DNA from: an uncultured Verrucomicrobiota bacterium | Lineage (GTDB): Bacteria; Verrucomicrobiota; Verrucomicrobiia; Palsa-1439 | Direction of reading: 5' to 3' | Assembly: GCA_903847335.1 (NCBI GenBank) | Contig: CAINDI010000143.1 | Location: forward strand, 9,946-73,945 | Length of the DNA: 64,000 nucleotides | In this document: positions 6,875 to 45,903 of the stretch, one piece after another | Numbering within the stretch: position 1 is the first letter of the stretch | How the letters are laid out: every line of letters starts with the position of its first letter | Translations under genes and position numbers: made by a program | Notes under the pieces: generated by a model | Told to the model about the DNA's origin: nothing | What the model saw: the letters and a program-made list of their open reading frames with translations, nothing else | Database searches by the model: none

Positions 6875-6876
6875 TT

Positions 6877-10785: not shown

Positions 10786-10828
10786 AGTCGTTCTCCTACA
10801 ACACCGGCACAATAATCCCAATTCATCC

Positions 10829-12478: not shown

Positions 12479-12490
12479 AGCGTTGGCTGG

Positions 12491-14737: not shown

Positions 14738-14749
14738 GGCGAGACCTGA

Positions 14750-16211: not shown

Positions 16212-16256
16212 GTGGCCGCCAAACTAATGATTGCCGGCGCGGAAAGCAAACTGAAC

Positions 16257-16285
16257 TTGATTCATGGCCAGTTCGCCGGTATAAG
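16257..16285 (+). promoter_or_regulatory. Candidate sigma70-type promoter for ilvB: TTGATT, 17-bp spacer, TATAAG.
   Basis: The -35 and -10 hexamers have 17-bp spacing and end about 12 nt upstream of the ilvB ATG. This implies a very short leader with no obvious Shine-Dalgarno sequence. Confidence 0.3.
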
Positions 16286-16297
16286 TTTGCCCCGAGT

Positions 16298-19897: not shown

Positions 19898-20989
19898 ATG
19901 ACACTTAAATTACGGGACAAATTTACTTTCGATCAACTTTCCCTCGGCGAAGTCATGTTGCGACTCGATCCCGGCGAAGGCCGCATCCGGACGGCGCGCG
20001 AATTCAAAGCGTGGGAAGGTGGCGGTGAATACAATGTCGCCCGTGGACTTCGCAAATGCTTTGGCCTGAAAACCGCCGTCTGCACGGCATTTGTCGACAA
20101 TGAAGTCGGGCATCTCATCGAGGATTTTATTCTGCAAGGCGGTGTCGTGACTGATTTCATTCAGTGGCGACCGGATGATGGAATCGGGCGAACGATTCGC
20201 AACGGACTCAATTTTACCGAGCGCGGTTTCGGCGTTCGCGGTGCGGTTGGTGTTTCAGATCGTGGTAACACCGCCGCTAGCCAACTCAAGCCCGGTGATT
20301 TCAACTGGGATAAAATCTTCGGTGAACTTGGTGTGCGCTGGTTTCATACCGGTGGCATTTTTGCGGCATTAAGCGAATCGACAGCGGCGCTAACGATTGA
20401 AGCCGTCAAAGCCGCTGCGAAATACGGCACAATCGTCAGCTACGATTTGAATTACCGGCCCAGTCTCTGGAAGAGTATCGGCGGTCCGGCGAAAGCCCGG
20501 GAAGTGAATCGCGAGATTGCCAAGTATGTAGATGTAATGCTGGGTAATGAAGAAGATTTCACCGCTAGTCTCGGTTTCGAGGTGAAAGGTATCGACCACA
20601 ACATCACCAAGATTGAAACGGATGCCTTCAAGCAGATGATTTCAACTGCTGTCAGCGAATTCAAAAATTTCAAAGTCGCCGCGACGACTTTGCGGTCGGT
20701 CATCACCGCGACGAAAAACGACTGGAGCGCGGTTTGCTGGATGGATGGCAAATTCTACGAGAGCCGTAAATATCCCGGTCTCGAAATTCTCGACCGGGTC
20801 GGCGGTGGCGACAGTTTTGCCAGTGGTTTGATTTATGGTTTTCTCAAAACCGGTGATCCGCAAAAAGCGGTGGATTACGGCGCGGCGCACGGCGCATTGG
20901 CGATGACGACCCCCGGCGATACTTCGATGGTTACCGGTAAGGAGGTTGAAAAACTGATGACCGGTGGTAGCGCCCGCGTTCAACGCTGA
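19898..20989 (+). CDS. PfkB-family sugar kinase (2-keto-3-deoxygluconate kinase-like).
   Basis: 363 aa ribokinase fold. C-terminal motif GGGDSFASGLIYG. N-terminal GEVMLRLDP matches the KdgK-like pattern. Confidence 0.7.
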   Translation: MTLKLRDKFTFDQLSLGEVMLRLDPGEGRIRTAREFKAWEGGGEYNVARGLRKCFGLKTAVCTAFVDNEVGHLIEDFILQGGVVTDFIQWRPDDGIGRTIRNGLNFTERGFGVRGAVGVSDRGNTAASQLKPGDFNWDKIFGELGVRWFHTGGIFAALSESTAALTIEAVKAAAKYGTIVSYDLNYRPSLWKSIGGPAKAREVNREIAKYVDVMLGNEEDFTASLGFEVKGIDHNITKIETDAFKQMISTAVSEFKNFKVAATTLRSVITATKNDWSAVCWMDGKFYESRKYPGLEILDRVGGGDSFASGLIYGFLKTGDPQKAVDYGAAHGALAMTTPGDTSMVTGKEVEKLMTGGSARVQR

Positions 20990-20995
20990 GCGACG

Positions 20996-22177
20996 TTACC
21001 GGCGGTCGAGAATCTCCCAAACTTTTGCGATATAAAACCGGTAATTTGCGAGCGGTGTGCCATTGGGAATCCGGTGATCTAGTCCGAAGACGCAACCGCC
21101 AGTCTGCATGATTACCGGTAGCTTATATTCTAATTCTGCAGTGATTTCTTGCTGACTCCTGCGTAAAATATGTTTATCAAGACCGCCGAGAAAAGCGATA
21201 CGGTTACCATATTGTTCGCGGAGTTTAACGATGTCCATTCCTGCGGCTGGCTCGCACGGGAAAATACAATTTACGCCGGCATCCAAAAACGCCGGGATGA
21301 TTGGTCGCATATCGCCATCGCTATCCTGTTTAAACAAACGTGCACCGCGTTCCTGAGCTAAATCCCAAACGCGCCGGTAATACGGTTTGATAAATTCTTC
21401 GACATGTTTCGGGCCAATGAGCGGCCCACTTCTTCCTGCCATGTCTTCATGCACGGAAAGTTGATCGACGTGTGGCAAGTGTTCGCAAATCCGGACGACG
21501 GTTTCCGTAATGGTTTCGAGAATCGCGTGGATCAGTTCCGGTTGCTCGTAACAGGCCAGCGCTAGAGATTCTTCTCCCATCAGTTGGCGCGGCTCGTCGA
21601 AACCGCCAGGAATTTGAAGCGAGGTCAGTTGACCGGCTGTCGATTGTAACTGGCCGAAGCGCGCTTCCGAAAATTCATAATGCTGCCGGATGCGTTGCCA
21701 ATCATCCATATTTGCCACCGGATACGTTGTCGGCAAAGCCAATGTTGCGGATTTCTTGGCCATCTCCATTCGGCGTCCCATTTGGTCGCGATACACAAGC
21801 GAATCGGCTGTGTCTTCGAGAATGACCGGTTCATCTCCGCCGAGCCAGCCTGTGATTACCGGTAAGTTATTTTCAATGACTGTGCGATATCGGAAAGTCG
21901 AAAGATTGATTTCGACTGGCGTTGCGCCTTGTGCGGCCCATTCTTCTTTCAGCCCCACCAACGGGCCGAAAATTTCCGTGAACAATGGCCGGGTGTTCGC
22001 GCGAAACGTCATGTAGTCGAGATACTCCTCCCGGCTGACGATTTCACCGCCGCGTTTAATTGCGAGTGCTGCGTGAAAGGAGTGGATGTAGTCGTTGACA
22101 TTCATTGGCGTATTTTCTCGTGCGGCGACGGATTCGGCAATGGACAGACTCCGCAAAGTTTTGTACTTATGGCGCAT
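20996..22177 (-). CDS. Uroporphyrinogen decarboxylase (URO-D) superfamily protein, not HemE-like; substrate unknown.
   Basis: 393 aa. The length and hydrophobic TIM-barrel pattern resemble the URO-D/MtaA family. This is the first of two such paralogs in the window. Confidence 0.45.
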   Translation of the reverse strand: MRHKYKTLRSLSIAESVAARENTPMNVNDYIHSFHAALAIKRGGEIVSREEYLDYMTFRANTRPLFTEIFGPLVGLKEEWAAQGATPVEINLSTFRYRTVIENNLPVITGWLGGDEPVILEDTADSLVYRDQMGRRMEMAKKSATLALPTTYPVANMDDWQRIRQHYEFSEARFGQLQSTAGQLTSLQIPGGFDEPRQLMGEESLALACYEQPELIHAILETITETVVRICEHLPHVDQLSVHEDMAGRSGPLIGPKHVEEFIKPYYRRVWDLAQERGARLFKQDSDGDMRPIIPAFLDAGVNCIFPCEPAAGMDIVKLREQYGNRIAFLGGLDKHILRRSQQEITAELEYKLPVIMQTGGCVFGLDHRIPNGTPLANYRFYIAKVWEILDRR

Positions 22178-22946
22178 GGCTCAGATGGTGCTACCGGAGG
22201 TTTGCATCAACACGCCGCCGCTGATTTACCGTTGCGAAACGGGTTGGCGTTGGTGTCCGGCGGCGTTACCTGATTTTGATCTCTGGTATGTGCTGGACGG
22301 CGTTGGGACTGTCGAATTAAACGGAGTTACTCAGGCAGTCGCCGCGCAAACCTGTTTTATTTTTTCACCCGGATCGCAAATCGTTGCTCACCATGACCCC
22401 CAGCACCGGTTGCGCGTATTTGCGGTCCACTTTGACTGGAAAAATCACCGGCGTTTCCGGTTGCCGGCAGACGGAATCAGAGTCCGTGATGCGGTATTCT
22501 TTTCCGCCTTAGCCCGCCGGTGTGCGGCGAGCTATCGACAGGGCACTGCCGTGGCACACCGGCAAAGTGCGGCACTCGTGGCGCAAATGCTATTGCACTT
22601 ATGGGCGGAAGCGGAACAACTCGTCACCTCGGTAATGGATTCACGGATTAGCGCGGCGGTGGAACTCATTCGAGAGGAACCGGGACGACGCTGCACCGTT
22701 GCAGGAATGGCGCAGAAAGCTGGATTATCCCGGTCGCAATTCACTCGGCAATTTACGACAGCAACGGGATTGTCACCGGAGCAGTTTTTCATTCAAGCGC
22801 GAATCGAACGTGCCACGCAATTGTTGCATGAGACCAGTATGACGATCAGCCAGATTGCGGATGCGCTCGGTTATCGGGATGTATTTTATTTCAGCCGGCA
22901 ATTCCGGCAAATCACCGGCAAGCCGGCCTCGGCATGCCGGCGCTGA
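22176..22946 (+). CDS. AraC-family transcriptional regulator: cupin sensor domain plus HTH_AraC.
   Basis: ATG at 22176 (M28) is divergent from the URO-D-like gene, and their start codons overlap. The C-terminal AraC HTH includes GLSRSQFTRQF and IADALGY. Confidence 0.8.
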   Translation: MAQMVLPEVCINTPPLIYRCETGWRWCPAALPDFDLWYVLDGVGTVELNGVTQAVAAQTCFIFSPGSQIVAHHDPQHRLRVFAVHFDWKNHRRFRLPADGIRVRDAVFFSALARRCAASYRQGTAVAHRQSAALVAQMLLHLWAEAEQLVTSVMDSRISAAVELIREEPGRRCTVAGMAQKAGLSRSQFTRQFTTATGLSPEQFFIQARIERATQLLHETSMTISQIADALGYRDVFYFSRQFRQITGKPASACRR

Positions 22947-32320: not shown

Positions 32321-33079
32321 ATGAAAATAACGCCGGCACAGTTGGACTTTTATGAACGGAATGGTTTCCTAGTCGTTGAAGACCTGATCTCAACGAAAAA
32401 CCTAGAGATTTTAAGCCGAAGAATTGACGAGATCCAGCAGGGGGTACTCCAAGCACAGGAGTCTGCGAAAGGTGGACAACCTGTAGGTTTTTTAATTGAA
32501 AAACAGAGTGACGGCTTAGCCGTGACAGCGAAACCCGCGGTGCGAAAACTTACCAATCTCGCATTCGTGGATGATTTTTTTAAGTCGATTGCCGCCAGTC
32601 CAAATATTCTAGACATTGTCTCACAACTCACCGGTGGTGGAACCGAGCTTATGCTTTACAGTGATCAGGCATTTCTAAAACCCGCTTTTTGTGGTTCAGC
32701 CAAACCTCTCCACCAAGATAATTCCTATTTTAAAGTCACGCCGAATTCTGCAGGAGTTACCTGTTGGCTAGCGATTGATAATGCAACCGTAGAAAATGGC
32801 TGTTTGAATTACATCCCCGGCACACACAAGCTTGGGCTAGTGAAGCATAAGGCTACTGATGACCCGGCACATCTAGTTCCAGATGTTGACTTCAAACTTG
32901 GAGTGGAAATACCACTGCCTATTCCGGCTGGTTCTTGTCTTTTTCATCACCTACTGGTCATGCATAGCTCTAAGGTTAACAGTAGCCCAAAGTCACGGCG
33001 GGCCTGGGCGCTGCATTATGCGAATCGCACTGCAGAAAAATCCGTTAAATCATGGGAGAATATGCTCAAGCTACGGTAG
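32321..33079 (+). CDS. Phytanoyl-CoA dioxygenase (PhyH) family Fe(II)/2-oxoglutarate-dependent dioxygenase.
   Basis: 252 aa. N-terminal YERNGFLVVEDLI. H-x-D in PLHQDNSYF, with a distal His in IPGTHK. Sits in a locally low-GC segment. Confidence 0.75.
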   Translation: MKITPAQLDFYERNGFLVVEDLISTKNLEILSRRIDEIQQGVLQAQESAKGGQPVGFLIEKQSDGLAVTAKPAVRKLTNLAFVDDFFKSIAASPNILDIVSQLTGGGTELMLYSDQAFLKPAFCGSAKPLHQDNSYFKVTPNSAGVTCWLAIDNATVENGCLNYIPGTHKLGLVKHKATDDPAHLVPDVDFKLGVEIPLPIPAGSCLFHHLLVMHSSKVNSSPKSRRAWALHYANRTAEKSVKSWENMLKLR

Positions 33080-33098: not shown

Positions 33099-34135
<1,037 letters not shown>

Positions 34136-34237: not shown

Positions 34238-35347
34238 ATGAACCAAATTATCGAACTGCTTTCCCGGCTTGTTGCTTGTCCGAGCATCAACCCGAAGAAT
34301 CTTGCGCCCACCGGTCTGCTCTATGGTGAAGCCGGTATGGTTGAGCTTCTCGCCAATCTTTTGCGCGATTGGGGTGGTCAAATTCAAATTAACGAAATTG
34401 CGCCGGGGCGTCCCAATCTACTTGCCTGTTTCCCCGGCAAAAATCCAAACCGGTCACTACTGCTCGACGCGCACACCGATGTCGTGGCGGTGGAGGGGAT
34501 GATCATTCCGCCATTCACACCAATGATTCGCGACGGGAAACTCTACGGGCGCGGTGCATGTGATACCAAAGGGCCAATGGTTGCCATACTTCTCGGTCTG
34601 CGCCGCGTTCTCGACGAACAGGGCCAGCCACCGGTGACAATCTGGTTTGCGGGGACTTGCAATGAAGAGCTTGGAGCCACCGGTGCCGCAGCACTGATGG
34701 CATCCGGTTTCCGGGCTGACATGGCCATTATCGCTGAGCCGACCGAACTGAAAATTATTCACGCCCACAAAGGGGCACTGCGCGCAATCTTGGAAACAAC
34801 CGGTATTGCTGCGCACAGCTCCACACCACAACTCGGTGTCAACGCAATCTACAAAATGCTGCCGGTTATCACTCGACTGGAAAAAATGATTTTCCCGGCC
34901 ACACATCCAAAACTCGGCGCACCGACATTAAGCGTCGGCACCATTGCCGGTGGATCACAAGTCAATATTGTGCCGGCGAGTTGTCGAATTGACGTGGATC
35001 GTCGGCTGCTGCCCGGTGAGACGCGTGAAGAAATCGTTCACCAACTTACCGGTAACGAAGATGTAATGTGCACAGTCACGGAATTTTATCCGCCACTTGA
35101 AGAGTCACTCGATAGTCCGGTGGCTGGCTTAGTAGCGGCGGCGTGTCGCCGTGTATTAGGTCGTGCCGAATTTAGTGCCGCACCCTATGCGACCAATGCG
35201 GGGGCTTACAAAGCGGCCGGCATTCCAGCCGTTGTTTTTGGTCCCGGTAGCATTGCTCAAGCCCACACGAAAGATGAGTTTATCGAGCTTTCAGCAGTGG
35301 CGCAGGCGGTGAATCTTTTCGCGGAAATTATCCAGAATGCAACTTAA
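34238..35347 (+). CDS. M20-family metallopeptidase (ArgE/DapE-type N-acyl-amino acid deacylase).
   Basis: 369 aa. Contains LDAHTDVV, GRGACDTKG, and the catalytic NEE (in GTCNEELGATG). Confidence 0.75.
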   Translation: MNQIIELLSRLVACPSINPKNLAPTGLLYGEAGMVELLANLLRDWGGQIQINEIAPGRPNLLACFPGKNPNRSLLLDAHTDVVAVEGMIIPPFTPMIRDGKLYGRGACDTKGPMVAILLGLRRVLDEQGQPPVTIWFAGTCNEELGATGAAALMASGFRADMAIIAEPTELKIIHAHKGALRAILETTGIAAHSSTPQLGVNAIYKMLPVITRLEKMIFPATHPKLGAPTLSVGTIAGGSQVNIVPASCRIDVDRRLLPGETREEIVHQLTGNEDVMCTVTEFYPPLEESLDSPVAGLVAAACRRVLGRAEFSAAPYATNAGAYKAAGIPAVVFGPGSIAQAHTKDEFIELSAVAQAVNLFAEIIQNAT

Positions 35348-35363
35348 GGAAACGAAATTAGCC

Positions 35364-36416
35364 ATGATGATACCATCCGTCCAAAAACTACGCATCGGTG
35401 TGACCGGTCTCGGTCGCATCGGTTGGGAACACGCCCAGCAACTGGCTAGCCACACTGATTTTACTCTGGCCGCAGTGGCGGATCCGGTGGCCGACCGGCG
35501 CGCCGAAGCGATTACGAAATTTGATTGTGTTGCCATGGCGACCCATGAGGAATTACTGCGTACCACTGGATTGGATGCAGTGGTGATTGCCACGCCGACC
35601 CATCTTCACAAAGCAATGGCAATTGCAGCCTTCAAAGCTGACCAGCATGTCTTTCTCGAGAAACCCATGGCTGTGACTATTGCCGAAGCCCGTGCGATTG
35701 CGCAGGCAGCTCAACGTGCTCATCGAGTTTTGACTGTCTACCAACCCCACCGGTTAACGGCCTATCATCAGCAAGTTCGTCACATCATTGCCACCGGTAA
35801 GCTGGGGCAGATTTATCACGTCAAACGCGGCGCGTTTGGTTGGGTGCGGCGGAATGATTGGCAGACGTTGCAAAAGTTTGGCGGTGGCATGCTGAATAAT
35901 TACGGCGCGCATTACCTCGATCAATTACTGGATCTGACTGGCCATGATCTCAATCGGATTTTTTGCCGGTTGGGAAGGGTGGCCTCACTGGGCGATACCG
36001 AAGATGTCGTGAAGGTTATTTATCAAACACGCTCTGGCATCCTCGGTGAAGTGGAAATCAATCAAGCTACGCCGCGTGGATTTTTTGAGTTGGAAGTTTA
36101 CGGTACACATGGCGTGTTGTGGAAAGAAGCGAATACACTAAAGCTCCGGTATTTTCGGGCTGAAGAATTACCGGCGCGGATATTGGATTCAACTCTTGCG
36201 ACTCCCGGTCGGGAATATCCACGTGACAACGCGAAGTTTTATGACGAGATCGTCGTTGTTGATGAACAGTACGCCGTGGATGTTTATGCGGATTTTGCTC
36301 AGGCAATTCGCATCGGTAGCGAGCCGTTTGTGAAGCCCGCCGAAACGCTCGCTGTGATGCAGTTGCTCGCCCGCTGCCGGAAGCAATCCGGTTCCATCAT
36401 CGCCACGCCAATCTGA
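35364..36416 (+). CDS. Gfo/Idh/MocA-family NAD(P)-dependent oxidoreductase.
   Basis: N-terminal Rossmann motif IGVTGLGRIGWEHA. An EKP motif (FLEKPMA). The C-terminus has an alpha/beta dimerisation domain. Confidence 0.8.
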   Translation: MMIPSVQKLRIGVTGLGRIGWEHAQQLASHTDFTLAAVADPVADRRAEAITKFDCVAMATHEELLRTTGLDAVVIATPTHLHKAMAIAAFKADQHVFLEKPMAVTIAEARAIAQAAQRAHRVLTVYQPHRLTAYHQQVRHIIATGKLGQIYHVKRGAFGWVRRNDWQTLQKFGGGMLNNYGAHYLDQLLDLTGHDLNRIFCRLGRVASLGDTEDVVKVIYQTRSGILGEVEINQATPRGFFELEVYGTHGVLWKEANTLKLRYFRAEELPARILDSTLATPGREYPRDNAKFYDEIVVVDEQYAVDVYADFAQAIRIGSEPFVKPAETLAVMQLLARCRKQSGSIIATPI

Positions 36417-36436: not shown

Positions 36437-37660
36437 GTGATGCACCAAGCAGATATTATTTTTATGATAAAAGCAAAAGATTCCGCATCTGAGCGAGTGT
36501 CGATGACCGGATATGGTCGTTCGCTCGCCGTAATTTCGGGAGGTCTTCCTGATCGGATACCGGCCTACACGCCCACCATTGCGAGTGATGTGGCGAGCCG
36601 GATTTTAGGACGCAACGCCCACACCGGCGGCCCAGCTCTCTGGTGGGCAGAAGCAGCAGCGTGGTGCAACGGCCCAACCGCTTGGCAGGAATTCGGTTGT
36701 CAGATTACAGAAGACATTATTGATTTACACCGGGCGTTGGGACAAGACGTCATTCGTTTCCCCTGGCGCAACAATATCAAGCCGACCGCCAAAATCAACG
36801 ACACCACTTTTCTATGTGGCGATCCGGCGGGCGACCATCAGATTTGGTATTGGGACGCACAGATGATGAATTTTATTCCGGACCGGCATCCCGTGGAGCC
36901 GCAGGTTGAAGATTGGCCGGCGGTAGCGAGAAAAGCTGAGAAAAACGTCGAGCAACGCATTGCCGAGGTTCGGGAAACCATCGGTGTACCGGAGGCTAGC
37001 CTACAAGCCAGACTCGGCGATACGATGTTAGTGCTCGGTGGTGGTGCAGTTGGCTTGAGCTTAGGCGTGGACGAAGCGCATTTGTTAGCCACTGCGTTGG
37101 AGCCGGAGGCGGTCTCCGACATCCTCGACTGCGATTTGGCAGTTAGCATTGCTGCGGTCAAAGCAATGGCCGGGCGCGGAATCAAGGCGGTTCTGGGGGG
37201 CGGAGACATGGCGGACAAGAATGGTCCGATGTACTCACCGGAAATGTTCCGGCATTTCATGCTGCCGCGCTGGAAGAAACTGGCGGACTGCTGCCGTGAG
37301 CTCGGTCTGCATTATGTGTGGCGAAGCGACGGTAATCTCTGGAAAGTCGCTGATATGCTTTTTCGCGAGGCAGCAATGCCGGGGTTTGGTGAGGTTGATT
37401 TTGATGCGGCAATGACGACGGCACGTTTGCGGGTGGAGTATCCGGATTTAGTTCTCTGGGCCAACCTGAGTGGCGATTTATTGTGTCGGGGTACCGCCGA
37501 GGATTCCTACCGGCATAGTATGCAACTGCTCGAAGTCAGTCGCGGTCGCCGTTATTTCCATGGTTGTAGCAATACAATTCTACCCGGTAGTCCGGTGGAA
37601 AATGTACACGCGATGATGCAGGCGCGGGACGATTTCAGCCGGCAACTCAGTAAATTATAA
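36437..37660 (+). CDS. Uroporphyrinogen decarboxylase (URO-D) superfamily protein, the second paralog.
   Basis: 407 aa. Pattern resembles the URO-D/MtaA TIM barrel. It is distinct from the first paralog at 20996..22177. Confidence 0.45.
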   Translation: MMHQADIIFMIKAKDSASERVSMTGYGRSLAVISGGLPDRIPAYTPTIASDVASRILGRNAHTGGPALWWAEAAAWCNGPTAWQEFGCQITEDIIDLHRALGQDVIRFPWRNNIKPTAKINDTTFLCGDPAGDHQIWYWDAQMMNFIPDRHPVEPQVEDWPAVARKAEKNVEQRIAEVRETIGVPEASLQARLGDTMLVLGGGAVGLSLGVDEAHLLATALEPEAVSDILDCDLAVSIAAVKAMAGRGIKAVLGGGDMADKNGPMYSPEMFRHFMLPRWKKLADCCRELGLHYVWRSDGNLWKVADMLFREAAMPGFGEVDFDAAMTTARLRVEYPDLVLWANLSGDLLCRGTAEDSYRHSMQLLEVSRGRRYFHGCSNTILPGSPVENVHAMMQARDDFSRQLSKL

Positions 37661-37674: not shown

Positions 37675-38562
37675 TTAGATCTCTTCTTCTTTTCCGCTGA
37701 CCAATGAGTGTTGTGCGGCTTCAAGCATGGCCATGATTTCAAGTGTGTCTTCCATTGCCACCGGCGCCGGAACACCCTGAAAGAAATTGGTAATTTTTTC
37801 CAATAGATCCGAATACATTCGATCGGTATCTACTACAAACGGCGCGGCTTGCTCGGTGCTTCGCAAGCATCCACCGTAAATCCAAACATTTTGGTTTAAC
37901 TCTACAATCCCTCGGCGACCACCGGCGTAACTGATAATTGCAATCAGCCCGGCGTCATCTTGCCGAACAAAAACTCGTTGGGCACCGCGTCCCATTGCGC
38001 GTTGCAGCATCTCAAAGGTGTGGACGCCATACCAGATGATGGAACTACCGGTGGGTGCTAGTCCCAATGGACCGTAAACTGTGGTGCATGATGGACTTGG
38101 TATTATTTGGCAAGCGGTTTCAAGTTGAGGAACAAAACGTAATGCGGATGCCGAAAAGGTTTTTAAGTTCCAGGCATTGATGAGTGCAGAAATCTTCCGA
38201 CCATTCGCCAATGTGTCGGCGAGTGGTTTATCGAGGAATACATTCTTACCTAAGTCAACACACCGGGAGAAATATTCCAAGTGATACGCCGGGTCGTTAA
38301 TCGCCAGTAGCAACGCATCGCAACCCGTGACCGCTTCGGTAAAATCAGTGGTAACTTTTACACCCCACGCTTCCAATTGTTGCTGGCGGGCATTCAAACC
38401 AGACTCACTTTGAAATGGAGTAGTAAAACGCAAGCAAGAAACCGCCTGCAAATGCTGAACTTTTTGCTCCGGTGGACACTCGGGAGCTTGCATCCGTTTC
38501 ACAAACTCAATGGTGTGACTGCTATCTAAACCGATGATTGCGACGCGAATCGTTTTGTGCAT
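37675..38562 (-). CDS. Gfo/Idh/MocA-like oxidoreductase with an N-terminal NAD-binding Rossmann domain.
   Basis: IRVAIIGLDSSHTIEF is an N-terminal dinucleotide-binding motif. The start is taken at M5 (MHKT). Confidence 0.55.
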   Translation of the reverse strand: MHKTIRVAIIGLDSSHTIEFVKRMQAPECPPEQKVQHLQAVSCLRFTTPFQSESGLNARQQQLEAWGVKVTTDFTEAVTGCDALLLAINDPAYHLEYFSRCVDLGKNVFLDKPLADTLANGRKISALINAWNLKTFSASALRFVPQLETACQIIPSPSCTTVYGPLGLAPTGSSIIWYGVHTFEMLQRAMGRGAQRVFVRQDDAGLIAIISYAGGRRGIVELNQNVWIYGGCLRSTEQAAPFVVDTDRMYSDLLEKITNFFQGVPAPVAMEDTLEIMAMLEAAQHSLVSGKEEEI

Positions 38563-39245
38563 TCGACTTTCCAATTAATGGTTTCTTCAAAAAACTGTAT
38601 GGCCATTGCACGCGACTGGCCTTCCTCGTGGCCGGTATTAGGTTCTACGACTAATTTCCACACTGCACCGGCGGATTGGTTGACGGTAAAAATGTTCCGA
38701 ATATTTGTAATCCGAAACTCGGCGTCATTGGCTCCGATGAAGAAAATTCCAGGTACTTGGCGCGCGGCTGCCGATGCGAGTTGGGTAAAGTAATAGCCGC
38801 CTTTATTCACAACAAATGCCAGCACGCGCTCCGGTTGCCAGCAGGTAAACTCGTAGTTGAACTGACCGCCTGCGGAATGTCCCCACAGCAAAAGTGGTGC
38901 CGTCGCGACTTCCAGATGTTGGGATTGTTCGGAAAATTGCCGTAAGGCTTCGAGTAATGCCGCGCCGCTGCCGGCGCTCGCCCGGCAATATTCTTCGATG
39001 TTCATGTTCTCGTGCGGATGATCTTTAAAATAACAGCCGACGAGTGCGAATTGATGTCGGTGGGCAAAATCCTGCCAGAAAATTTCTGTGACCATTGTCC
39101 GTCCGTCGCCGTTGGAGCCCGGCATCAATACCAGTACGCCGCGACATCTATCCGTTTTAGCCGGTAACCAAAATCGGAAATCTGCTACGGCGTAGTTCTG
39201 ACTGGCCGGTAAGACGACATTCAACTCGGGGGTTTTCATTTCCAA
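38526..39245 (-). CDS. Alpha/beta-hydrolase fold esterase.
   Basis: 239 aa. The nucleophile elbow is GHSAGG, with a downstream His near the C-terminus (NTGHEEG). Confidence 0.65.
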   Translation of the reverse strand: MEMKTPELNVVLPASQNYAVADFRFWLPAKTDRCRGVLVLMPGSNGDGRTMVTEIFWQDFAHRHQFALVGCYFKDHPHENMNIEEYCRASAGSGAALLEALRQFSEQSQHLEVATAPLLLWGHSAGGQFNYEFTCWQPERVLAFVVNKGGYYFTQLASAAARQVPGIFFIGANDAEFRITNIRNIFTVNQSAGAVWKLVVEPNTGHEEGQSRAMAIQFFEETINWKVECTKRFASQSSV

Positions 39246-40216
39246 TGCGGCGCGGTTGACCAGAGAAAGCGTTCCAGCCGTTCGTCAAGTTGCCGGCGTT
39301 CTGCGGCGGCCTCCGGATAATCGGCGTGGCCGGCAGTGAGGATAAACATTTCTTTGGGTCCCGACAAAGCATTGAGCACCGCAAATTGTCCGGGCGGCGG
39401 CACCACGGCATCGGTGAGAGCCGGTGCCACAAAAACCGGAATGCGAATGCGGCGCGCAGCCGTGGCGGCGTCAAAATAAGGTAGAACTTTGCGAACCTCC
39501 GGATGTGTTTGCGCGTATTGCCGGACGATTTCGCCTCTGCCGATACCGGCGATACTTAATCGCAACGGATGATGGCCAAACGTCGGCACTTCCAGATAGG
39601 CGCGTTGATACAGCGGTTCCCACGGCAAAGCCATTGCACCCAATCCACCGCCGAAACTACAACCGTAATAAACAATATTTTCCGCCACTGCCGGTACCAA
39701 CTGCGCCAGCGCTTGAGCGCCCGACCATAACGCAGTCACGCAATGCCGTAAAATATAGGTCTCACGCTGTGCGATGCCATGGAGCACATGCTGGTCTGCC
39801 GTGTCGGGAATTTCTGGTGCGGCGGAAAGGCTGAAACCGGGCGCGTTGACAAAAAGAGTCGCCATGGAACGCTGTGGGAATTCCGGTTCCGTCCGCGCGC
39901 CATATCCGTGACCAATGACAGCCCCGAGTTTGACCGGCTGCGAACGCGGTAGGACGAGCCATGCGCCGACGCGAACACCATCCAAGGTTTTAAAATAAAT
40001 CTCAAACAACCGGTGTTCCGGACTTGGCGATAGCAATTCAGTTTGCGTCAACTCCAGAGGTTGGGCGGCGAATTCCCGACGGGTTGCCTGCCAAAAATTG
40101 TCGAAGTCTACTGGCTCGGATGGAGGTTCAATTTTTAGCAATTCATCAAGTTTAGGAGATGGCACGCTCATAACACTTGCAGATTTAGTCATGGCTCGGC
40201 GTGGTTGCAAGCTCAA
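39236..40216 (-). CDS. Acetyl xylan esterase / cephalosporin-C deacetylase family (CE7, AXE1).
   Basis: 326 aa. N-terminal AXE1 region (DFDNFWQATRREF), the GCSFGGGL nucleophile elbow, and a C-terminal His. The start is uncertain; 40192 or 40171 are internal ATG candidates. Confidence 0.75.
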   Translation of the reverse strand: MSLQPRRAMTKSASVMSVPSPKLDELLKIEPPSEPVDFDNFWQATRREFAAQPLELTQTELLSPSPEHRLFEIYFKTLDGVRVGAWLVLPRSQPVKLGAVIGHGYGARTEPEFPQRSMATLFVNAPGFSLSAAPEIPDTADQHVLHGIAQRETYILRHCVTALWSGAQALAQLVPAVAENIVYYGCSFGGGLGAMALPWEPLYQRAYLEVPTFGHHPLRLSIAGIGRGEIVRQYAQTHPEVRKVLPYFDAATAARRIRIPVFVAPALTDAVVPPPGQFAVLNALSGPKEMFILTAGHADYPEAAAERRQLDERLERFLWSTAPHWK

Positions 40217-43111
40217 TCAAACTCCACACTTGAATTGGGAGCTAATGCCGTTAATCTGCTGGCAGACCAATTTACCAACGTGACCACTCCTGATAACTGG
40301 TTAAAGAATTTCGCCGTACCGGCGACCGACAATCGTCCAATGCCACTCTGGGTTTGGAATGGCGAGGTGAGCGAGGCGCGCATCACTGTCATGCTGGAGC
40401 AAATTGCTGCGCAACATTGCGGTGGCGTTTTTATCCATCCCCGGCCCGGACTCATCACTGAATATCTTTCCGAACGCTGGTTTGAATTGTGGGCCTTTGC
40501 GCTCCGAGAATGCGAACGACTTGGTTTGGAATGTCACATCTACGATGAGAATTCTTTTCCGTCCGGTTTTGCCGGCGGCCATGTGCCGGCTACCGACCCC
40601 AACACCGTTGCGGAGACGATGACCGGCGTTGCCGATGGTCAGTTTGTCCTCAAGAAAGCACCACCGGATCCATTTCATGCCGGCTTCGGTTACGTCGATC
40701 TCGCTCGTCCGGGAACGACAGAATTATTTCTTCAAACCACTCACGCGCAGTATGTCCGCCGCTTTCAAAGTGAATTCGGGAAGCGAATCAAATACGCATT
40801 TACCGATGAACCGGAGCTTTACAGCCGCGATGGTCTCGCGTGGTCGGCACATTTGGCGCAAGAATTTCAGCGCGAACACGGTTACGCACTTACGGACCGG
40901 CTAACTGCATTTGCCGGTACCGACGAATCAGCGTGCGCCGTCCGATTTGATTATTTCTCGACGGCGCAAAGATTGTTCACTGAAAATTTTCTCCAACCGA
41001 TGCACGATTGGTGCGCCGCCCACGAACTCGCATTCACCGGTCACTTCAACGAACACGTCTGGCCGGTGCCGTGCGATGTACCGGACATCATGGCGGCATT
41101 ACGCTGGATGCATGTTCCCGGTAACGACCTACTCGGTTTTCAATTCACACCAACCAACCGCGTGGCTAACGGTGTGCGTCTGTTGAATCTCACTGAGCTT
41201 CGCAGCGTCGCTAACCAACTCGGTCGCGACCGAGTGCTTTGCGAAACCACCGGTGGTGGCGGCTACGGATTTGCGCTCGCCGATGCCAAAGCGCTTGAAG
41301 ATTTTGCCCTCGCCAACGGCGTCAATTTTATTAATCCACACCTCAGTTACGAAACGCTCGCCGGCGCGCGCAAATACGATTGGCCACAAACATTCAGCGA
41401 TCACAGCCCGTGGTGGGATGCCTACCGGTTGAATGCCGACCACACCGCGCGTGTTGTTCACGCTCTCCGGCAAGGCCGCGAACAGAACCGGATTCTCGTG
41501 CTGCAACCCACCACGACCGCGTGGATTCATTACCGTCCACCGTCGTTTAAGTCCGACAAAAAACTCGATCCGGTCATCGCCCAACTCCGCCAATCGCAAA
41601 TCGAATTGGTGCTGGCATTGCACGGTGAACATTTTGATTTTGATCTCGGCGACGAACTAATCATGGCCGAACTTGGCGCGGCGGAAGCCGGTCAGCTGCG
41701 TGTTGGCGAGCGCAATTACGATGTCGTGGTGATACCGGTAGGAATGGAAAACCTGCTCGACAGCACAGCGGCATTGCTACAGCAATTCAAAGAAGCCGGT
41801 GGAAAAATTTTGGTTGCCGGCGAATTGCCGACATTTATGCGCGGTCGAAAGCTTGCCGACACAACGCCGTTCGCCAGTTGGGAACGCTGTGGTTCGACGG
41901 AAAAACTTTTGACGCGACTCCGGCAACTTGTTCCGCCGCGATTTACTGCGCCGGCCGACTGGTGCGTGATGCGGAAGGAATTGCCCGCCGGTGATATTTT
42001 GTATTTCATCGCGAATCCGTGGGACCAAGCGCAACGCGCCACCATTCAGCTCGAAGGTCGCAACGCCGTACTCCTCGACACCGCGACCGGCACGATGTCG
42101 GCGCTAGAAAATTTCGAGTTAGATTTACCGGCTCGCGGACACGCGTTGGTGTTGATGTCACCGGTGGCTGCTCCGGTGAAAGTTCAACCAAAATGGCGCG
42201 GCGCGGAAGTTGGGCCGGTTAGCGTCGAACGGGCGGACGTGAATGTTCTCGCCCTCGACTACTGCGACTTCGGCGTCGAAAAAAGTTTGCCGACGATTGC
42301 GGCGGATTTGAAAAATTGGCAGGCGAATGGTTTTCCGCGTAATATGTGGAGCGTCAGCACTCAGTACAAACAGACAATTCTGGATGCGCCAATCGCTACC
42401 GGTAGCGGTTTCACGGTGCGCTACCGGTTTCATACACTGCAAATGTCGCTGGAATTAGCAGTGGAACGGCCATGGCTGTACCGGATTACCCTGAACGGAA
42501 AACTAGTTTCGTTTGAAGGAGCAAGCCGGTGGTTTGATGAAGACATTCGGCGCGTCAATATCTCTGGCCTTGTCGTCGCTGGCGAAAACATCATCGAGCT
42601 GACGGCGCAGAAGTTCAACGTGCTCTGCGAGATTATGCCGGTTTATCTTTTGGGAAATTTTTCGGTCACGCCGGGGAGTATTGGATTTGTTCTCGAGCCG
42701 GCGCGGCCGCTCGCCTTGGGTGATTGGGTAGGGCAGGGACTACCATTTTATCCGTGGGGTGTGCGGTACCGGATGTCGATTGGTTTGACACAACCAGCCC
42801 GGCAAATCGCGGTGGAATTACCGGAATGGGCCGGCTCTGTTGCGCACATTTATTGGAATGGTACATCGCGTGGTGCTATCGCATTTCCGCCTTACCGGCT
42901 CGAATGGACAGAAGATGTGCCGGTGGGCGAACACGAATTGGTCGTTGAGGTTCGCGGCAATCTTAAAAATTTACTTGGCCCACATTTCAGCGATGGTTTA
43001 CCGGGACCGTGGAGTTGGCAGGCCGCCCCGCAACCGCAACCGGCGGGTAGCCAGTATAAATTTTCGCCAACCGGTCTCCAGAAACCGCCGCGCTGTTGGT
43101 TCGCCTCTTAA
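40205..43111 (+). CDS. Large cytoplasmic glycoside hydrolase with an N-terminal (beta/alpha)8 barrel and C-terminal beta-sandwich domains. Tentatively GH106-like (alpha-L-rhamnosidase-type). Paralog of 52239..55346.
   Basis: 968 aa with no signal peptide. The N-terminal block is PLWVWNGEV...GGVFIHPRPGL...YDENSFPSGFAGG. The C-terminal region (LLGNFSV...GDWVGQGLPFYPWGVRY) is shared with the paralog. The true start may be internal, around 40340. Confidence 0.55.
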   Translation: MQAQSNSTLELGANAVNLLADQFTNVTTPDNWLKNFAVPATDNRPMPLWVWNGEVSEARITVMLEQIAAQHCGGVFIHPRPGLITEYLSERWFELWAFALRECERLGLECHIYDENSFPSGFAGGHVPATDPNTVAETMTGVADGQFVLKKAPPDPFHAGFGYVDLARPGTTELFLQTTHAQYVRRFQSEFGKRIKYAFTDEPELYSRDGLAWSAHLAQEFQREHGYALTDRLTAFAGTDESACAVRFDYFSTAQRLFTENFLQPMHDWCAAHELAFTGHFNEHVWPVPCDVPDIMAALRWMHVPGNDLLGFQFTPTNRVANGVRLLNLTELRSVANQLGRDRVLCETTGGGGYGFALADAKALEDFALANGVNFINPHLSYETLAGARKYDWPQTFSDHSPWWDAYRLNADHTARVVHALRQGREQNRILVLQPTTTAWIHYRPPSFKSDKKLDPVIAQLRQSQIELVLALHGEHFDFDLGDELIMAELGAAEAGQLRVGERNYDVVVIPVGMENLLDSTAALLQQFKEAGGKILVAGELPTFMRGRKLADTTPFASWERCGSTEKLLTRLRQLVPPRFTAPADWCVMRKELPAGDILYFIANPWDQAQRATIQLEGRNAVLLDTATGTMSALENFELDLPARGHALVLMSPVAAPVKVQPKWRGAEVGPVSVERADVNVLALDYCDFGVEKSLPTIAADLKNWQANGFPRNMWSVSTQYKQTILDAPIATGSGFTVRYRFHTLQMSLELAVERPWLYRITLNGKLVSFEGASRWFDEDIRRVNISGLVVAGENIIELTAQKFNVLCEIMPVYLLGNFSVTPGSIGFVLEPARPLALGDWVGQGLPFYPWGVRYRMSIGLTQPARQIAVELPEWAGSVAHIYWNGTSRGAIAFPPYRLEWTEDVPVGEHELVVEVRGNLKNLLGPHFSDGLPGPWSWQAAPQPQPAGSQYKFSPTGLQKPPRCWFAS

Positions 43112-45903
43112 TCGCCGAGACCCAAAAAGGAATGACCGGGCGCAGCTTCGAGGAGAAAGTGCACGGTACCGGCTTCTTTGTTGGAGAGATGGGTTTTCAA
43201 GATACCGTGTTCGGTTTCCAGAGTGGTAACTTGGTTTGTAAGTGGATCGCCGTTAAAATTCAGTGGTGTCAAATGCCAGATTTTGGCACCGGTCTTCAAA
43301 GTGAAGTCGGCGGTGACCGGCTCCATCAGGATTGGTGAGTCCCCTTGTTTGTCGAGCCGGTATCGATCACCGCGTTTGCCGTATTGCTGACCGGTATTGC
43401 GGGTGCGCCCGACGAGAGCGATGTGAATGCTGTGCGACTTATTCACCGGTCGATGGTCGAGACTGGAGAAATGTACGACGCCGTAGGCATCGTTCAAAGT
43501 CGCGGTCAAGCCACCATCCTGGAAGGTTTGATTGGAGAGGAAACCCATCACGCCTTGGGTTTTCGGCGTGTTGATGCGAATAAAACCTTGGTCGTAATTC
43601 CAGATTAATTCACCGGTACTGCTGGTGATGGTTTTAGCTTTTTCATCATGGCACTTCCGGTAGGTTTTTTCATCCCAGACAGCCGGATATTTCTTCGGAT
43701 CAAACGATAATTCGACCCGGCCAATGAACGCCGCCTCCGGTGGGCAAGGAGTGCCACCGAATAGCATGGCGAACTGAGTATCAGATTCCCGGCTTTGCAG
43801 AGTGCGCTTGCGGAGTGGATTGTGCAGTGCGGTTTCATCGAGTGCGTTGCGATAAATAAGCGGTGCAGGTTTGACGTCGCCACGAACATAGAGGTAATGC
43901 GCCAACGGTTCGCAGGCCATTTGCGCTGGATTGTCAAACATTCCGAAAATCGAGTTCAGGAAACCAGCGGAGTCAACATCGTCCACTACGAAATGATGAT
44001 TCGCCGATAAATTTTGAAGCGCACCGTAGGCCGCCATGAATGGGCCGGCTTCGACGGTGTAGTCGTTGGGCCATGGGAATTGCCATTCGGTGCAGGTGAA
44101 TGGTTTGCCGGCGGGTTGCTGGTAAATGAACATGAAGAAATTATCCTTAGGAGATTTTTCAATCGGTAAATTTTCAAAGGTCACGGCGTTGGGCACCCAG
44201 CCGCCGAGCGGATGCAGCCAATAGCTATGTTTACCGGCGAAGTCGAAATTCGCATTGGCGGCTGTCTGGATTTCTTGGAGATAATTCGGACCGCCCCACG
44301 ATGAACCTTGCAACAATGTCCGGCTACCGGTGCTCCGGAGGACATCACGCACTTTGCTGAACCAGTTCACTTCGAGTTCGTAGTAAAATTTAGTCTGATC
44401 GGCGGCGCGATTAACTTCAGCGGGACGGATGTTGGCGAGATTACCAATATTGCGGAGCGCGATGGTTTCCTTGCTCAAGCTTTCGGTGATGAGGTCGAGT
44501 GGGCTGGTCTCATTCGCTACACGCCAAGCAGTCTGTAGTCCGCTATCGTCGCCGTATTTCTTTTTCAGCCAAGCATTCCATAATTCTTGGAGCTTGAGCC
44601 GGTAGCTACTCGGAATGGCATCGGTCGGATAAAAGAACAAGCTACATTCATTGACGACTTTGAACATGTTGAAGGCGGGTTCTTCTGCGTAAGTCCGGCC
44701 AGTATAAGGATTTTTATGTGCCAGAAATTCCCGGAGAAAAGTGAGATACAATTCCTGGTGGCGTTCATCATAAAAATACTGGGTATTGTTTAACCCCGAG
44801 ATTTTATCCGCCTGCTTCACACCGGCGGCTTCAGTCCACAGATGGCTGAAGAGCATGGACGCTTTGATACTGATACCAGCTTTCTGTAGTTCGTTAACGA
44901 AGTAGTCAAATTTATCGAGTCGTTTGAGGTCGAGTTTGTGCGGGTCGGTGCGGTCGCTTTGGAATGTGTCCATCAAGGAGTGGAACCGGACTTGATTGAA
45001 GCCAAACTTGGTGAGCCGGCGGATATAATGTTGTGCGAGCGATTTCGGCGGAAAGAGACTCGCGCCACCGAGGACAACGCCTTGGAAGCGGACGGCTTGG
45101 TCATCGTCAAAGAGCAACCGCTCGCCGTCGGCGTGCAGCCAGCCGGTGCGCGATTTGACAAAACCTTTTTCCCACGCGGCAACGGTGTCTTTATCGTAGT
45201 TGAACTTCAGTGGAAACCAATTCTCTACTCCGGCAGCAACTGGCTTCCAAGTCAGTTGGCCTTGCACCAGTTCCTCCTCCGGTTTATCGCCAAAACTCAC
45301 GCCTAAAACCGCGAGCGATCCACCGGTAAACGTTGATTTGAAAGTTAGACTCGTTACCGCTTTGTTCGGTTGTGTCAGCTTTAGCGGAATCAGATAAACG
45401 CCAATGGTTGCGCCTTGGCCGTTTTGGCCATGCCACGCGACAGTTCCGCGCTCCAGTTCATGCGGCCCCCACCAACCACTGATTCGGTCACCCAAAGTCA
45501 ATGGAATGGATTGTGTTTCGCCACCTTCGTACTGGATATCCACCGTCACCACCACGCCATCACCGCCCCACACATAGGTGGCGAGCAGATAAAGAAATTT
45601 TCCTTTTATCTTTGATACCGTGAGTTTCACTGTCTCCGGTAACGCGGGTAAATTTTTACCGCCGAGCATCAACGCCGCCGGGCCGTTCTCAATAATTGCA
45701 AACGGCACGCCTTTGAAAGTTTGCTGCCCGCGTGGAAATCCCGATAAGCAATTATCTTTGCCTTGACCGGTCCAGCCGGCGCGTTCTACTGAGTCGGTCA
45801 ACTCCCGGTTGGCAACTGAATTCAGTGGTACTGTCACAAATTCGGCGCGAACCACGTTGGTGGTGAGTATCAATAGACAGAAGAGGCGTGTAAAAACTTT
45901 CAT
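43108..45903 (-). CDS. Secreted multidomain glycoside hydrolase with a central clan GH-A (GH5-like) TIM barrel, plus N-terminal and C-terminal beta-rich accessory domains.
   Basis: 931 aa. Signal peptide MKVFTRLFCLLILTTNVVRA. The central region has FNQVRFHS and a VVNE acid/base-like motif. The family assignment is tentative. Confidence 0.5.
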   Translation of the reverse strand: MKVFTRLFCLLILTTNVVRAEFVTVPLNSVANRELTDSVERAGWTGQGKDNCLSGFPRGQQTFKGVPFAIIENGPAALMLGGKNLPALPETVKLTVSKIKGKFLYLLATYVWGGDGVVVTVDIQYEGGETQSIPLTLGDRISGWWGPHELERGTVAWHGQNGQGATIGVYLIPLKLTQPNKAVTSLTFKSTFTGGSLAVLGVSFGDKPEEELVQGQLTWKPVAAGVENWFPLKFNYDKDTVAAWEKGFVKSRTGWLHADGERLLFDDDQAVRFQGVVLGGASLFPPKSLAQHYIRRLTKFGFNQVRFHSLMDTFQSDRTDPHKLDLKRLDKFDYFVNELQKAGISIKASMLFSHLWTEAAGVKQADKISGLNNTQYFYDERHQELYLTFLREFLAHKNPYTGRTYAEEPAFNMFKVVNECSLFFYPTDAIPSSYRLKLQELWNAWLKKKYGDDSGLQTAWRVANETSPLDLITESLSKETIALRNIGNLANIRPAEVNRAADQTKFYYELEVNWFSKVRDVLRSTGSRTLLQGSSWGGPNYLQEIQTAANANFDFAGKHSYWLHPLGGWVPNAVTFENLPIEKSPKDNFFMFIYQQPAGKPFTCTEWQFPWPNDYTVEAGPFMAAYGALQNLSANHHFVVDDVDSAGFLNSIFGMFDNPAQMACEPLAHYLYVRGDVKPAPLIYRNALDETALHNPLRKRTLQSRESDTQFAMLFGGTPCPPEAAFIGRVELSFDPKKYPAVWDEKTYRKCHDEKAKTITSSTGELIWNYDQGFIRINTPKTQGVMGFLSNQTFQDGGLTATLNDAYGVVHFSSLDHRPVNKSHSIHIALVGRTRNTGQQYGKRGDRYRLDKQGDSPILMEPVTADFTLKTGAKIWHLTPLNFNGDPLTNQVTTLETEHGILKTHLSNKEAGTVHFLLEAAPGHSFLGLGD

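Follow-up and report, generated by a model that had tools for sequence, protein, structure and literature searches.

Which reaction is catalysed by proteins of the uroporphyrinogen decarboxylase (URO-D) superfamily that are encoded among sugar oxidoreductases? This question is raised by a 64-kb stretch of DNA from an uncultured Verrucomicrobiota bacterium (contig CAINDI010000143.1; hereafter the window), which carries two such genes: UROD1 (36437..37660, plus strand), the main subject of this work, and UROD2 (20996..22177, minus strand). The initial annotation of the window had described both products as non-HemE URO-D-like proteins and proposed that they could be cofactor-independent decarboxylases of uronic or keto-acid sugars. 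In this work, profile searches, structure modeling and the comparison of orthologous loci were applied to UROD1 and its family. The family is preferentially encoded beside NAD(P)-dependent sugar dehydrogenases in glycan loci, and UROD1 probably performs an undescribed step in sugar breakdown. The reading favored here, to which we give close to an even chance, is that UROD1 is a corrinoid-independent sugar-modifying enzyme coupled to the adjacent dehydrogenase of the GFO/IDH/MocA family (hereafter GFO); we infer its substrate class, its corrinoid independence and every chemical step of the scheme proposed below. The combination of a known fold with a rebuilt active site in a new metabolic setting makes the family a solid lead for enzyme discovery.

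The UROD1 family

Both open reading frames (ORFs) were confirmed, and the profile check bore out the URO-D fold of their products: the Pfam URO-D model (PF01208) scored 44.2 bits for UROD1 and 51.2 bits for UROD2, above the gathering score of 23.9, and HemE signatures were absent from both. In each protein the match is confined to the C-terminal half. From its GTG start, the UROD1 ORF encodes 407 aa. For the identical protein in the database (P0001), the gene call starts at ATG 36464, and the alignment with homologues begins at Met23, corresponding to ATG 36503 (385 aa), from which residues are numbered here. The AlphaFold2 model of UROD1 (predicted local distance difference test score 95.9) contains an inserted beta-hairpin subdomain at approximately residues 96-126. 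The (beta/alpha)8 fold together with the score above the Pfam gathering value places UROD1 in the UroD/MetE TIM-barrel superfamily (PF01208). Scans for promoters and terminators gave no signal beyond the shuffled expectation.

A word-indexed search retrieved UROD1 homologues in 104 clusters, and an exhaustive profile search retrieved 192 representatives at E<=1e-30 and 5,777 at E<=1e-3; 53 UROD1 loci were collected by a genome scan. The hosts are glycan degraders from many phyla and include Verrucomicrobiota, Lentisphaerota/Victivallaceae, Planctomycetota (Sedimentisphaeraceae and Phycisphaerae), Anaerolineae, Armatimonadota, Gemmatimonadota, Elusimicrobia-like groups, Clostridia, Treponema and Bathyarchaeia. 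Proteins of the family are named only 'uroporphyrinogen decarboxylase (family protein)' or 'hypothetical'. UROD1 is a genuine conserved cytoplasmic enzyme of the UroD/MetE superfamily, and its family is small and uncharacterized.

Putative active site of UROD1

Conservation within the family was assessed in an alignment (A1) of 58 members, down to 31% identity. A regular-expression search for either HemE signature found none in these 58 sequences or in 31 members of the UROD2 family; the PROSITE patterns used include the N-terminal P-x-W-x-M-R-Q-A-G-R with its substrate-binding arginines, in place of which the UROD1 family reads PDRVPAYTPT. The active-site histidine of HemE, which follows strand 8 (His339 of the human enzyme), is also missing from UROD1: in a profile alignment with tobacco HemE its position is occupied by Asn357, which is invariant in the UROD1 family. 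An NCBIfam scan at E<=0.01 retrieved no hemE model for UROD1. The only matches were to MtaA/CmuA models (TIGR01463, NF004889 and NF040654), with 34.6, 31.2 and 26.6 bits against cut-offs of 235, 244 and 400, the best of them reaching approximately 15% of its cut-off; UROD2 obtained 22.7 bits against the cut-off of 235. A firm clustering with methylcobamide methyltransferases, which the initial annotation had named as refuting its proposal, is not seen for either protein at these scores, and the zinc ligands of these enzymes are not conserved.

The zinc site of MtaA and MetE, His-x-Cys...Glu...Cys, corresponds to R274-x-D276...E297...N357 in UROD1, according to the profile alignment and a comparison of paralogue motifs. 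Within the alignment, R274 is conserved in 57 of the 58 sequences and D276, E297 and N357 in each of the 58, no cysteine or histidine is invariant, and no Cys/His column exceeds 83%. The motifs R-[ST]-D-G-[NK]-x-W, G-E-x-D and S-N are present in all 59 ortholog loci. The UROD1 family is thus a separate branch of the superfamily, located on its MtaA-like side, with a rebuilt metal site whose positions read R/D/E/N. Compared with all PDB sequences, the UROD1 profile matched MtaA best (E 1e-8), with HemE at E 0.23 and CdmB at E 0.58. In the active-site comparison with HemE and MtaA that the initial annotation had suggested, neither site is kept; the profile lies nearer to MtaA than to HemE, which weakens the decarboxylase proposal. 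The conserved polar residues D235, R274, D276, E297, D299, N321, S356 and N357 all directly follow strands of the model barrel, the place where the active sites of TIM barrels are found.

Judged by motifs and scores, neither UROD1 nor UROD2 is a HemE or a zinc/thiol methyltransferase of the MtaA type. That UROD1 could nevertheless be an ordinary HemE, or an ordinary MtaA/MtbA-type methylcobamide:thiol methyltransferase, is suggested by the Pfam URO-D match, the weak NCBIfam matches to MtaA/CmuA and the 'uroporphyrinogen decarboxylase' annotations. In view of the absent signatures (0/58), hemE model and His-x-Cys...Cys site, and of scores far under the cut-offs, we see almost no chance of this. 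Its context speaks against it as well: Pfam scans of the window, covering every ORF that reaches 150 aa and is not contained in a longer one, detected no haem-pathway or methylotrophy genes.

Association with GFO dehydrogenases

Directly upstream of UROD1, on the same strand and separated from it by 20-86 nt, lies a gene for a full-length GFO/IDH/MocA NAD(P)-dependent sugar dehydrogenase (35337..36416, plus strand) with both the N- and C-terminal Pfam GFO_IDH_MocA domains. Its nearest characterized relatives of solved structure are DgpA C-glycoside 3-dehydrogenases (E 4e-23 and 1e-20), and it further resembles YjhC, 1,5-anhydrofructose reductase and inositol dehydrogenases. This dehydrogenase is likely the functional partner of UROD1.

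Unbiased clustering of the ORFs up to 5 kb away from the orthologue, carried out on 48 distinct loci, yielded GFO/IDH/MocA as the commonest neighbor (16), followed by URO-D paralogues (11), AraC regulators (5), heparinase II/III-like proteins (5) and homologues of GFOshort (4), a short Rossmann protein also encoded next to UROD1 in the window. Pfam analysis of the 126 nearest neighbors in 46 loci identified GFO (10), AraC (6), xylose-isomerase-like barrels (4), URO-D (3) and B12-binding proteins (2). Since GFO genes could be frequent neighbors simply by being abundant in these genomes, they were counted at increasing distance from the UROD1 gene as an internal control. Their density falls from 1.2 genes per 10 kb at 0-1 kb to 0.41 at 1-2.5 kb, 0.24 at 2.5-5 kb, 0.16 at 5-7.5 kb and 0.07 at 7.5-10 kb, and is approximately 10-fold higher within 1 kb than at 5-10 kb. 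GFO/IDH/MocA is the sole clearly enriched neighbor of the UROD1 family, an association that is statistically real. A GFO gene is directly adjacent to the UROD1 gene in 12 of the 59 loci, this adjacency covers orthologues of 33% to 100% identity, and the two genes overlap in L001 or are separated by gaps of 45-170 nt in L072 and L007 (ortholog and other fetched loci are designated by L numbers).

Genes for glycan degradation recur in the ortholog loci. Heparinase II/III-like proteins are encoded within approximately 6 kb in eight distinct loci; further genes encode fucosidases, a sialidase-like BNR protein, GH31, GH42 and GH1 enzymes, a sulfatase, a ROK kinase and GDSL esterases, and an enolase-superfamily protein and a pectate-lyase-like protein occur once each. 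AraC regulator genes adjoin the UROD1-family gene in L007, L017, L027, L039 and L051. In addition, 23 further URO-D-like paralogues of other subfamilies were found in the fetched loci, with motifs ranging from H-x-C (MtaA-like) through H-x-D to A/R-x-D; the URO-D superfamily has clearly radiated in glycan degraders.

It is conceivable that the sugar context is incidental, UROD1 acting on another small molecule or having a non-catalytic role, and that GFO genes are frequent near it merely because they are abundant. The neighborhoods are indeed heterogeneous, about two thirds of the loci contain no GFO gene within 5 kb, the genes of L005, L071 and L073 lie among housekeeping or biosynthetic genes, and the reverse test with GFOshort, described next, failed. 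However, the steep decay of GFO density with distance, the overlaps or very short gaps with GFO genes in several phyla, and the recurrent glycoside hydrolases, lyases and esterases are at odds with an incidental context, and the strictly conserved polar residues at the predicted barrel mouth argue for catalysis; we therefore consider this explanation decidedly improbable.

In L007, the second gene downstream of the Elusimicrobia orthologue encodes a protein with 57% identity to GFOshort. A fixed URO-D/GFO/GFOshort module, prompted by the window and L007, was ruled out by the reverse test, in which 53 metagenome loci anchored on GFOshort homologues (42-99% identity; L074-L126) were examined. 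The usual partner of GFOshort is a full-length GFO protein, directly adjacent in at least 11 of the 53 loci, and the two possibly form a heteromeric dehydrogenase pair. Besides the anchored loci with UROD1-family members (see below), four more hold other URO-D-like proteins, two above the Pfam cut-off and two slightly below it, and the two sub-cut-off proteins directly adjoin the GFO/GFOshort pair. The association is thus a looser one, of diverse URO-D-fold proteins with GFO dehydrogenases, with no triad module.

Three clostridial loci (L036, L045 and L061; for example, L045:3561-4757) encode a conserved 398-aa protein along with the orthologue, and a GFO gene is present as well. The 398-aa protein is probably the source of the NAT_N/GNAT_C acyltransferase-like Pfam matches among the pooled neighbors. 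This set of neighbors is unlike that of bacteria of the Planctomycetes-Verrucomicrobia-Chlamydiae group.

Proposed function of UROD1

In the scheme that we favor, a sugar that derives from a glycan and has been imported, possibly an acidic sugar, would be oxidized at one of its hydroxyls by the GFO dehydrogenase, which yields a keto sugar. The UROD1 barrel would then perform carbanion or enolate chemistry on this keto sugar, such as beta-elimination, isomerization, hydration or decarboxylation of a beta-keto acid. Arg274 may replace the lost metal as the positive charge that stabilizes an anionic (enolate or carboxylate) species, with Asp and Glu residues at the barrel mouth as candidate acid/base groups, and a second reductase would restore the product to an ordinary sugar. 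The scheme would be analogous to that of xylose-isomerase-like barrels, which partner DgpA-type and glycoside 3-dehydrogenases. Two observations on oxygen were counted in its favor. The UROD1 family is present in metagenome-assembled genomes assigned to the Chthoniobacter, Gemmatimonadetes and Fimbriimonadaceae lineages, the cultured members of which are mostly aerobic, and the window copy is located on the same strand as a gene for an O2-dependent PhyH dioxygenase.

One of the options in this scheme is the activity proposed in the initial annotation, the cofactor-independent decarboxylation of a uronic or keto-acid sugar, for example, of a 4-keto-uronate made by the GFO enzyme. UROD1 has its fold in common with HemE, the sole cofactor-free decarboxylase of the superfamily; the conserved R6, R85, R89 and R274 could bind carboxylates; and the GFO partner could generate a beta-keto acid. 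The recurrent heparinase II/III-like lyases of the ortholog loci, as well as the single enolase-superfamily and pectate-lyase-like proteins, act on uronate-containing glycans, and a KDG-kinase-like PfkB protein is encoded beside UROD2. Nevertheless, this specific activity appears improbable. The catalytic and substrate-binding motifs of HemE are missing, and its histidine is an asparagine in UROD1 (UROD2 retains the histidine). Neither a lyase nor a uronate-pathway gene adjoins UROD1 in the window, no feature separates decarboxylation from elimination, isomerization or hydration, and the corrinoid-gene neighbors in L025 and L046 described below would be left unexplained. What the initial annotation said about fold and genomic context is borne out, but no specific feature supports its decarboxylase part. 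Its statement that such an activity is undescribed in glycan catabolism held up: a full-text search of a literature library found no paper linking the URO-D superfamily to glycan or sugar catabolism.

Corrinoid-system genes and possible methyl transfer

The initial annotation had found no corrinoid or methyltransferase partner for either protein, and in agreement with this, the Pfam scans of the window were negative for B12-binding, MtaB, pterin-binding and RACo proteins. Corrinoid proteins, RACo and pterin methyltransferases were likewise absent from 57 of the 59 ortholog loci and from the 53 GFOshort-anchored loci. A search of the 112 fetched loci and the window by regular expressions and by jackhmmer seeded with the three proteins of L025 and L046 found no copies of the corrinoid system beyond these two loci. 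The B12-binding neighbor in L044, considered as an MtaC-type carrier, is a 547-aa mutase-like protein. The gene of a characterized methyltransferase I (MT I) normally shares a cluster with that of its corrinoid protein (mtv, odm, cdm), and corrinoid genes at two of 59 loci are too rare for a classical operon of MT I, corrinoid protein and MT II.

Several lines of evidence nevertheless weigh against a corrinoid-independent, GFO-coupled UROD1. The frequency of two in 59 is higher than we would expect from chance for such rare genes and is unexplained by corrinoid independence. In L025 (Lentisphaerae; 7673-11128), genes for a 212-aa MtaC-like protein with B12-binding and B12-binding_2 domains and for a Pterin_bind methyltransferase are located divergently, 360 nt upstream of a bona fide UROD1-family member; by its domains, this looks like a complete three-component methyl-transfer set. 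In L046, a RACo activator (4523-6397) is the neighbor of four URO-D genes that run on one strand and end with a UROD1-family member. This 21.7-kb locus from Candidatus Caldisaccharidevorator contains six URO-D-superfamily genes in total (2839-16354), with paralogues on either side of the overlapping four-gene run (7214-11730). It further encodes a nitroreductase as well as subunits of a 2-oxoacid:ferredoxin oxidoreductase; a corrinoid protein is absent from it. Moreover, the loss of the zinc site is compatible with corrinoid dependence, because zinc-free corrinoid methyltransferases of the URO-D fold exist: CdmB contains no metal, and neither does MtvB (PMC13222342). O-directed members of the superfamily have carboxylates or non-coordinating residues instead of the Cys ligands, and every characterized member other than HemE transfers alkyl or methyl groups (PMC10418091). 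Among solved structures, it is MtaA that the UROD1 sequence profile matches best (E 1e-8). The pocket geometry is deduced solely from the positions of conserved residues relative to model strands, and no single residue points to the reaction or the substrate, which sequence alone does not decide. Finally, GFO adjacency is limited to approximately 20-35% of the loci, and in the reverse test members of the UROD1 family were present in only 3 of the 53 GFOshort-anchored loci, all three from close relatives of the window organism. Because corrinoid-system genes occur at two of the 59 ortholog loci, the term 'cofactor-independent' used in the initial annotation is not established.

Under a competing explanation, UROD1 is a corrinoid-dependent methyltransferase (an O-demethylase MT I or an MtaA-like enzyme) that, for example, demethylates O-methyl sugars derived from glycans. 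A corrinoid protein whose gene lies at another place in the genome would accept the methyl group. The GFO dehydrogenase would act on the sugar after its demethylation, or else would precede UROD1 by producing a keto sugar, the enediolate of which resembles phenolate as a leaving group. Such an enzyme is attractive as a means of handling methylated sugars. Methyl and alkyl transfers as the known non-HemE functions, O-type members without Cys ligands (PMC10418091) and the zinc-free CdmB and MtvB (PMC13222342) are all consistent with it. The same is true of the profile similarity to MtaA as the closest solved structure, an MtaA-like N-terminal motif, the restriction of NCBIfam matches to MtaA/CmuA, the corrinoid and pterin-binding partners in L025, the RACo gene in L046, and the His/carboxylate pattern H-[ST]-D-G-N of the nearest paralogues. 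Many UROD1 hosts also belong to lineages known as anaerobic glycan degraders.

The methyltransferase is the main rival of the favored reading and a serious possibility, but other evidence makes it the less likely of the two. Corrinoid-system genes are missing from the window, from the 53 GFOshort-anchored loci and from all ortholog loci except two. The His ligand is replaced by an almost invariant arginine (57/58), and the NCBIfam scores stay near 15% of the cut-offs. The family also occurs in mostly aerobic lineages, with the window copy downstream of the gene for an O2-dependent dioxygenase. The ethers of sugars are aliphatic, and nucleophilic demethylation is chemically harder for these than for aryl ethers. 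The full-text literature search found no paper on such an activity.

Broader implications

A wider reading covers the corrinoid-independent scheme and the methyltransferase alternative alike: URO-D-fold proteins of several diverged subfamilies may have been recruited as unrecognized enzymes of glycan catabolism, the UROD1 subfamily, with its Arg/Asp/Glu/Asn site, being GFO-coupled and sugar-directed. We consider this quite conceivable, at somewhat less than an even chance. The reaction could then be a cofactor-free decarboxylation or elimination on a keto-uronate, or a corrinoid-linked O-demethylation of methylated sugars. For the latter process, the only described route that we know of is the oxygen-dependent one of P450 enzymes.

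If a sugar-directed activity is true, it would add a new reaction class to the well-studied UroD fold, for which haem-precursor decarboxylation and methyl or alkyl transfer are known (PMC10418091). The functions listed for the superfamily in the literature are those of HemE, MetE, epoxide coenzyme M transferase and corrinoid methyltransferases. Such an activity could also close a gap in how glycans are catabolized by Verrucomicrobiota, Lentisphaerota, Planctomycetota, Armatimonadota, Clostridia and related groups, the candidate gaps being the unblocking of methylated sugars and the processing of keto sugars or uronates from the very abundant GFO dehydrogenases. In addition, the label 'uroporphyrinogen decarboxylase' on both the UROD1 and UROD2 families misleads the reconstruction of the haem pathway in metagenome-assembled genomes. 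The UROD2 family is larger still, more conserved (approximately 60-75% identity between phyla) and equally unstudied, and its genes are often joined in operons with those of PhyH dioxygenases.

The second paralogue, UROD2

UROD2 (393 aa) is 22% identical to UROD1 over 245 residues (E 7e-9), and only the C-terminal halves of the two family profiles align in a profile-profile comparison (probability 98%). Judged from these similarities, the two genes are old paralogues from different subfamilies, with no recent duplication. A search with UROD2 gave 3,529 matches, the best 120 of which have 59-96% identity and are distributed across several phyla. The family is characterized by the motifs H-E-D, D-S-D-G-D, E-P and D-H, and the histidine retained by UROD2 at the HemE position is H344.

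UROD2 is convergent with the gene for a PfkB-family, KDG-kinase-like sugar-acid kinase (19898..20989, plus strand; Pfam PfkB), the NCBIfam matches of which, all sub-cut-off, are to KDG/KDGal kinase and a KDPG aldolase/kinase fusion. It is divergent from the gene for an AraC-family regulator (22095..22946, plus strand; Pfam HTH_18, HTH_AraC and AraC_binding). The longest ORFs of UROD2 and AraC overlap by 83 nt at their 5' ends (22095-22177), so at least one of the annotated starts must lie further downstream; since UROD2 homologues have approximately 370 aa, the true start of UROD2 is probably near 22105. An AraC gene adjoins the UROD2-family gene in L070 as well as in the window. In two of three extra contexts, a PhyH gene abuts a UROD2-family gene (L068, 7001-9107; L070, 6144-8101), and this O2-dependent partner argues against Co(I) chemistry for the UROD2 family. 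A PhyH homologue is also found in L027, where 3 nt separate it from a UROD1-family ORF of the same strand (9914-11050).

The window segment 26010-29152 encodes a 665-aa protein in which an ATP-cone is fused to a phosphoribulokinase/uridine-kinase-like domain, and after it a rubrerythrin-VIT1 fusion. This ATP-cone/phosphoribulokinase gene also occurs near the UROD2 orthologue in L070 (808-2262), suggesting partial synteny.

Other genes of the window

The sugar kinase, oxidoreductase and esterase neighbors named in the initial annotation were recovered as PfkB, GFO, alpha/beta-hydrolase and AXE1 proteins. On the plus strand upstream of the GFO gene, a PhyH-family Fe(II)/2-oxoglutarate dioxygenase (32321..33079) and an aldo-keto reductase (33105..33950), both identified by Pfam and NCBIfam, may open the transcription unit that includes UROD1. 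They are followed by an M20 ArgE/DapE-family deacylase (34238..35347, plus strand; NCBIfam TIGR01910, 229 bits, cut-off 217.6), the end of which overlaps the GFO start by 11 nt, suggesting that both belong to one operon; the deacylase is not kept beside orthologues elsewhere. Convergent with UROD1, the minus strand encodes GFOshort (37675..38574; 295 aa from 38562 in the database gene calls), which contains the Pfam GFO_IDH_MocA N-terminal domain only (31 bits), then a 239-aa alpha/beta-hydrolase (38526..39245) with a weak NCBIfam esterase-type match and an AXE1/CE7 acetyl esterase (39236..40216; Pfam AXE1, 94.5 bits). A conserved set of the M20, AXE1 and alpha/beta-hydrolase genes was considered and rejected: it is seen only in close relatives, with the AXE1-hydrolase arrangement present in L074-L076.

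The GH106-like glycoside hydrolase gene at 40205..43111 (plus strand; Pfam Glyco_hydro_106, 47.5 bits) marks the region as a glycan-utilization locus. A second GH106-like copy (52239..55346), a GH4 alpha-galactosidase (49408..51297) and a LacI regulator are encoded further downstream. A heparinase-like lyase was sought in the window by tblastn with four such proteins, and none was found. An inositol or O-methyl-inositol pathway was suggested by the IolG-like GFO, the IolC-like PfkB and a thiamine diphosphate-dependent enzyme (16298..18127); it is unsupported because the latter is a biosynthetic acetolactate synthase (718 bits).

Three further features were recorded in this part of the window. 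A 931-aa ORF with no Pfam match (43108..45903, minus strand) is located between the GH106-like gene and the LacI-regulated block. At 47881-48678, flanked by the genes for a LacI regulator and a periplasmic-binding-like protein, lies the gene for a DUF1559 protein with a methylation motif at its N terminus; the DUF1559 family is known from Planctomycetota and related groups, in keeping with an origin of the window in the Planctomycetes-Verrucomicrobia-Chlamydiae group. A GSU2086-family protein (57745-58755, minus strand; NCBIfam, 422 bits) adjoins a protein with an HldE-like heptose-7-phosphate kinase domain (56741-57748), and this pair is unrelated to the UROD1 finding.

Comparison with known systems

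HemE (EC 4.1.1.37; PDB 1j93 and 1uro) and UROD1 are 13-16% identical. UROD1 differs from HemE in lacking both signatures, in the asparagine at the position of the histidine, in the extra hairpin at approximately residues 96-126 and in a context free of haem-pathway genes, and the carboxylate-rich tetrapyrrole substrate of HemE is implausible for UROD1. In comparison with MetE, UROD1 has lost the His/Cys/Cys ligands, consists of a single barrel and occurs in a context unrelated to methionine or folate. The His, Cys and Cys ligands of the MtaA/MtbA/MtsA methyltransferases (PDB 4ay7) correspond to Arg, Asp and Asn in UROD1, the window encodes neither a corrinoid protein nor an MT1 partner, and the hosts of UROD1 are not methanogens.

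The MT I enzymes OdmB, VdmB, MtvB and CdmB (PDB 9rui) have the URO-D fold, with extensions between the first strands, in common with UROD1, and can dispense with zinc (PMC13222342). However, the cavity of CdmB is hydrophobic and aromatic, whereas the conserved residues of UROD1 are charged or polar, and the UROD1 profile does not match CdmB significantly (E 0.58). Their gene cluster of MT I, corrinoid protein, MT II and RACE was not found in the window or in 57 of the 59 UROD1 loci. Xylose-isomerase-like barrels, namely, DgpB/C, the 3-keto-glucoside 1,2-lyase AL1 (8tcd) and AtHYD (8ro4), offer a functional analogy only. In these systems, as in that of UROD1, the gene for a TIM-barrel enzyme lies beside the gene for a DgpA-like GFO dehydrogenase in glycan or glycoside loci, and xylose-isomerase-like barrels themselves co-occur with the UROD1 family in several ortholog loci.

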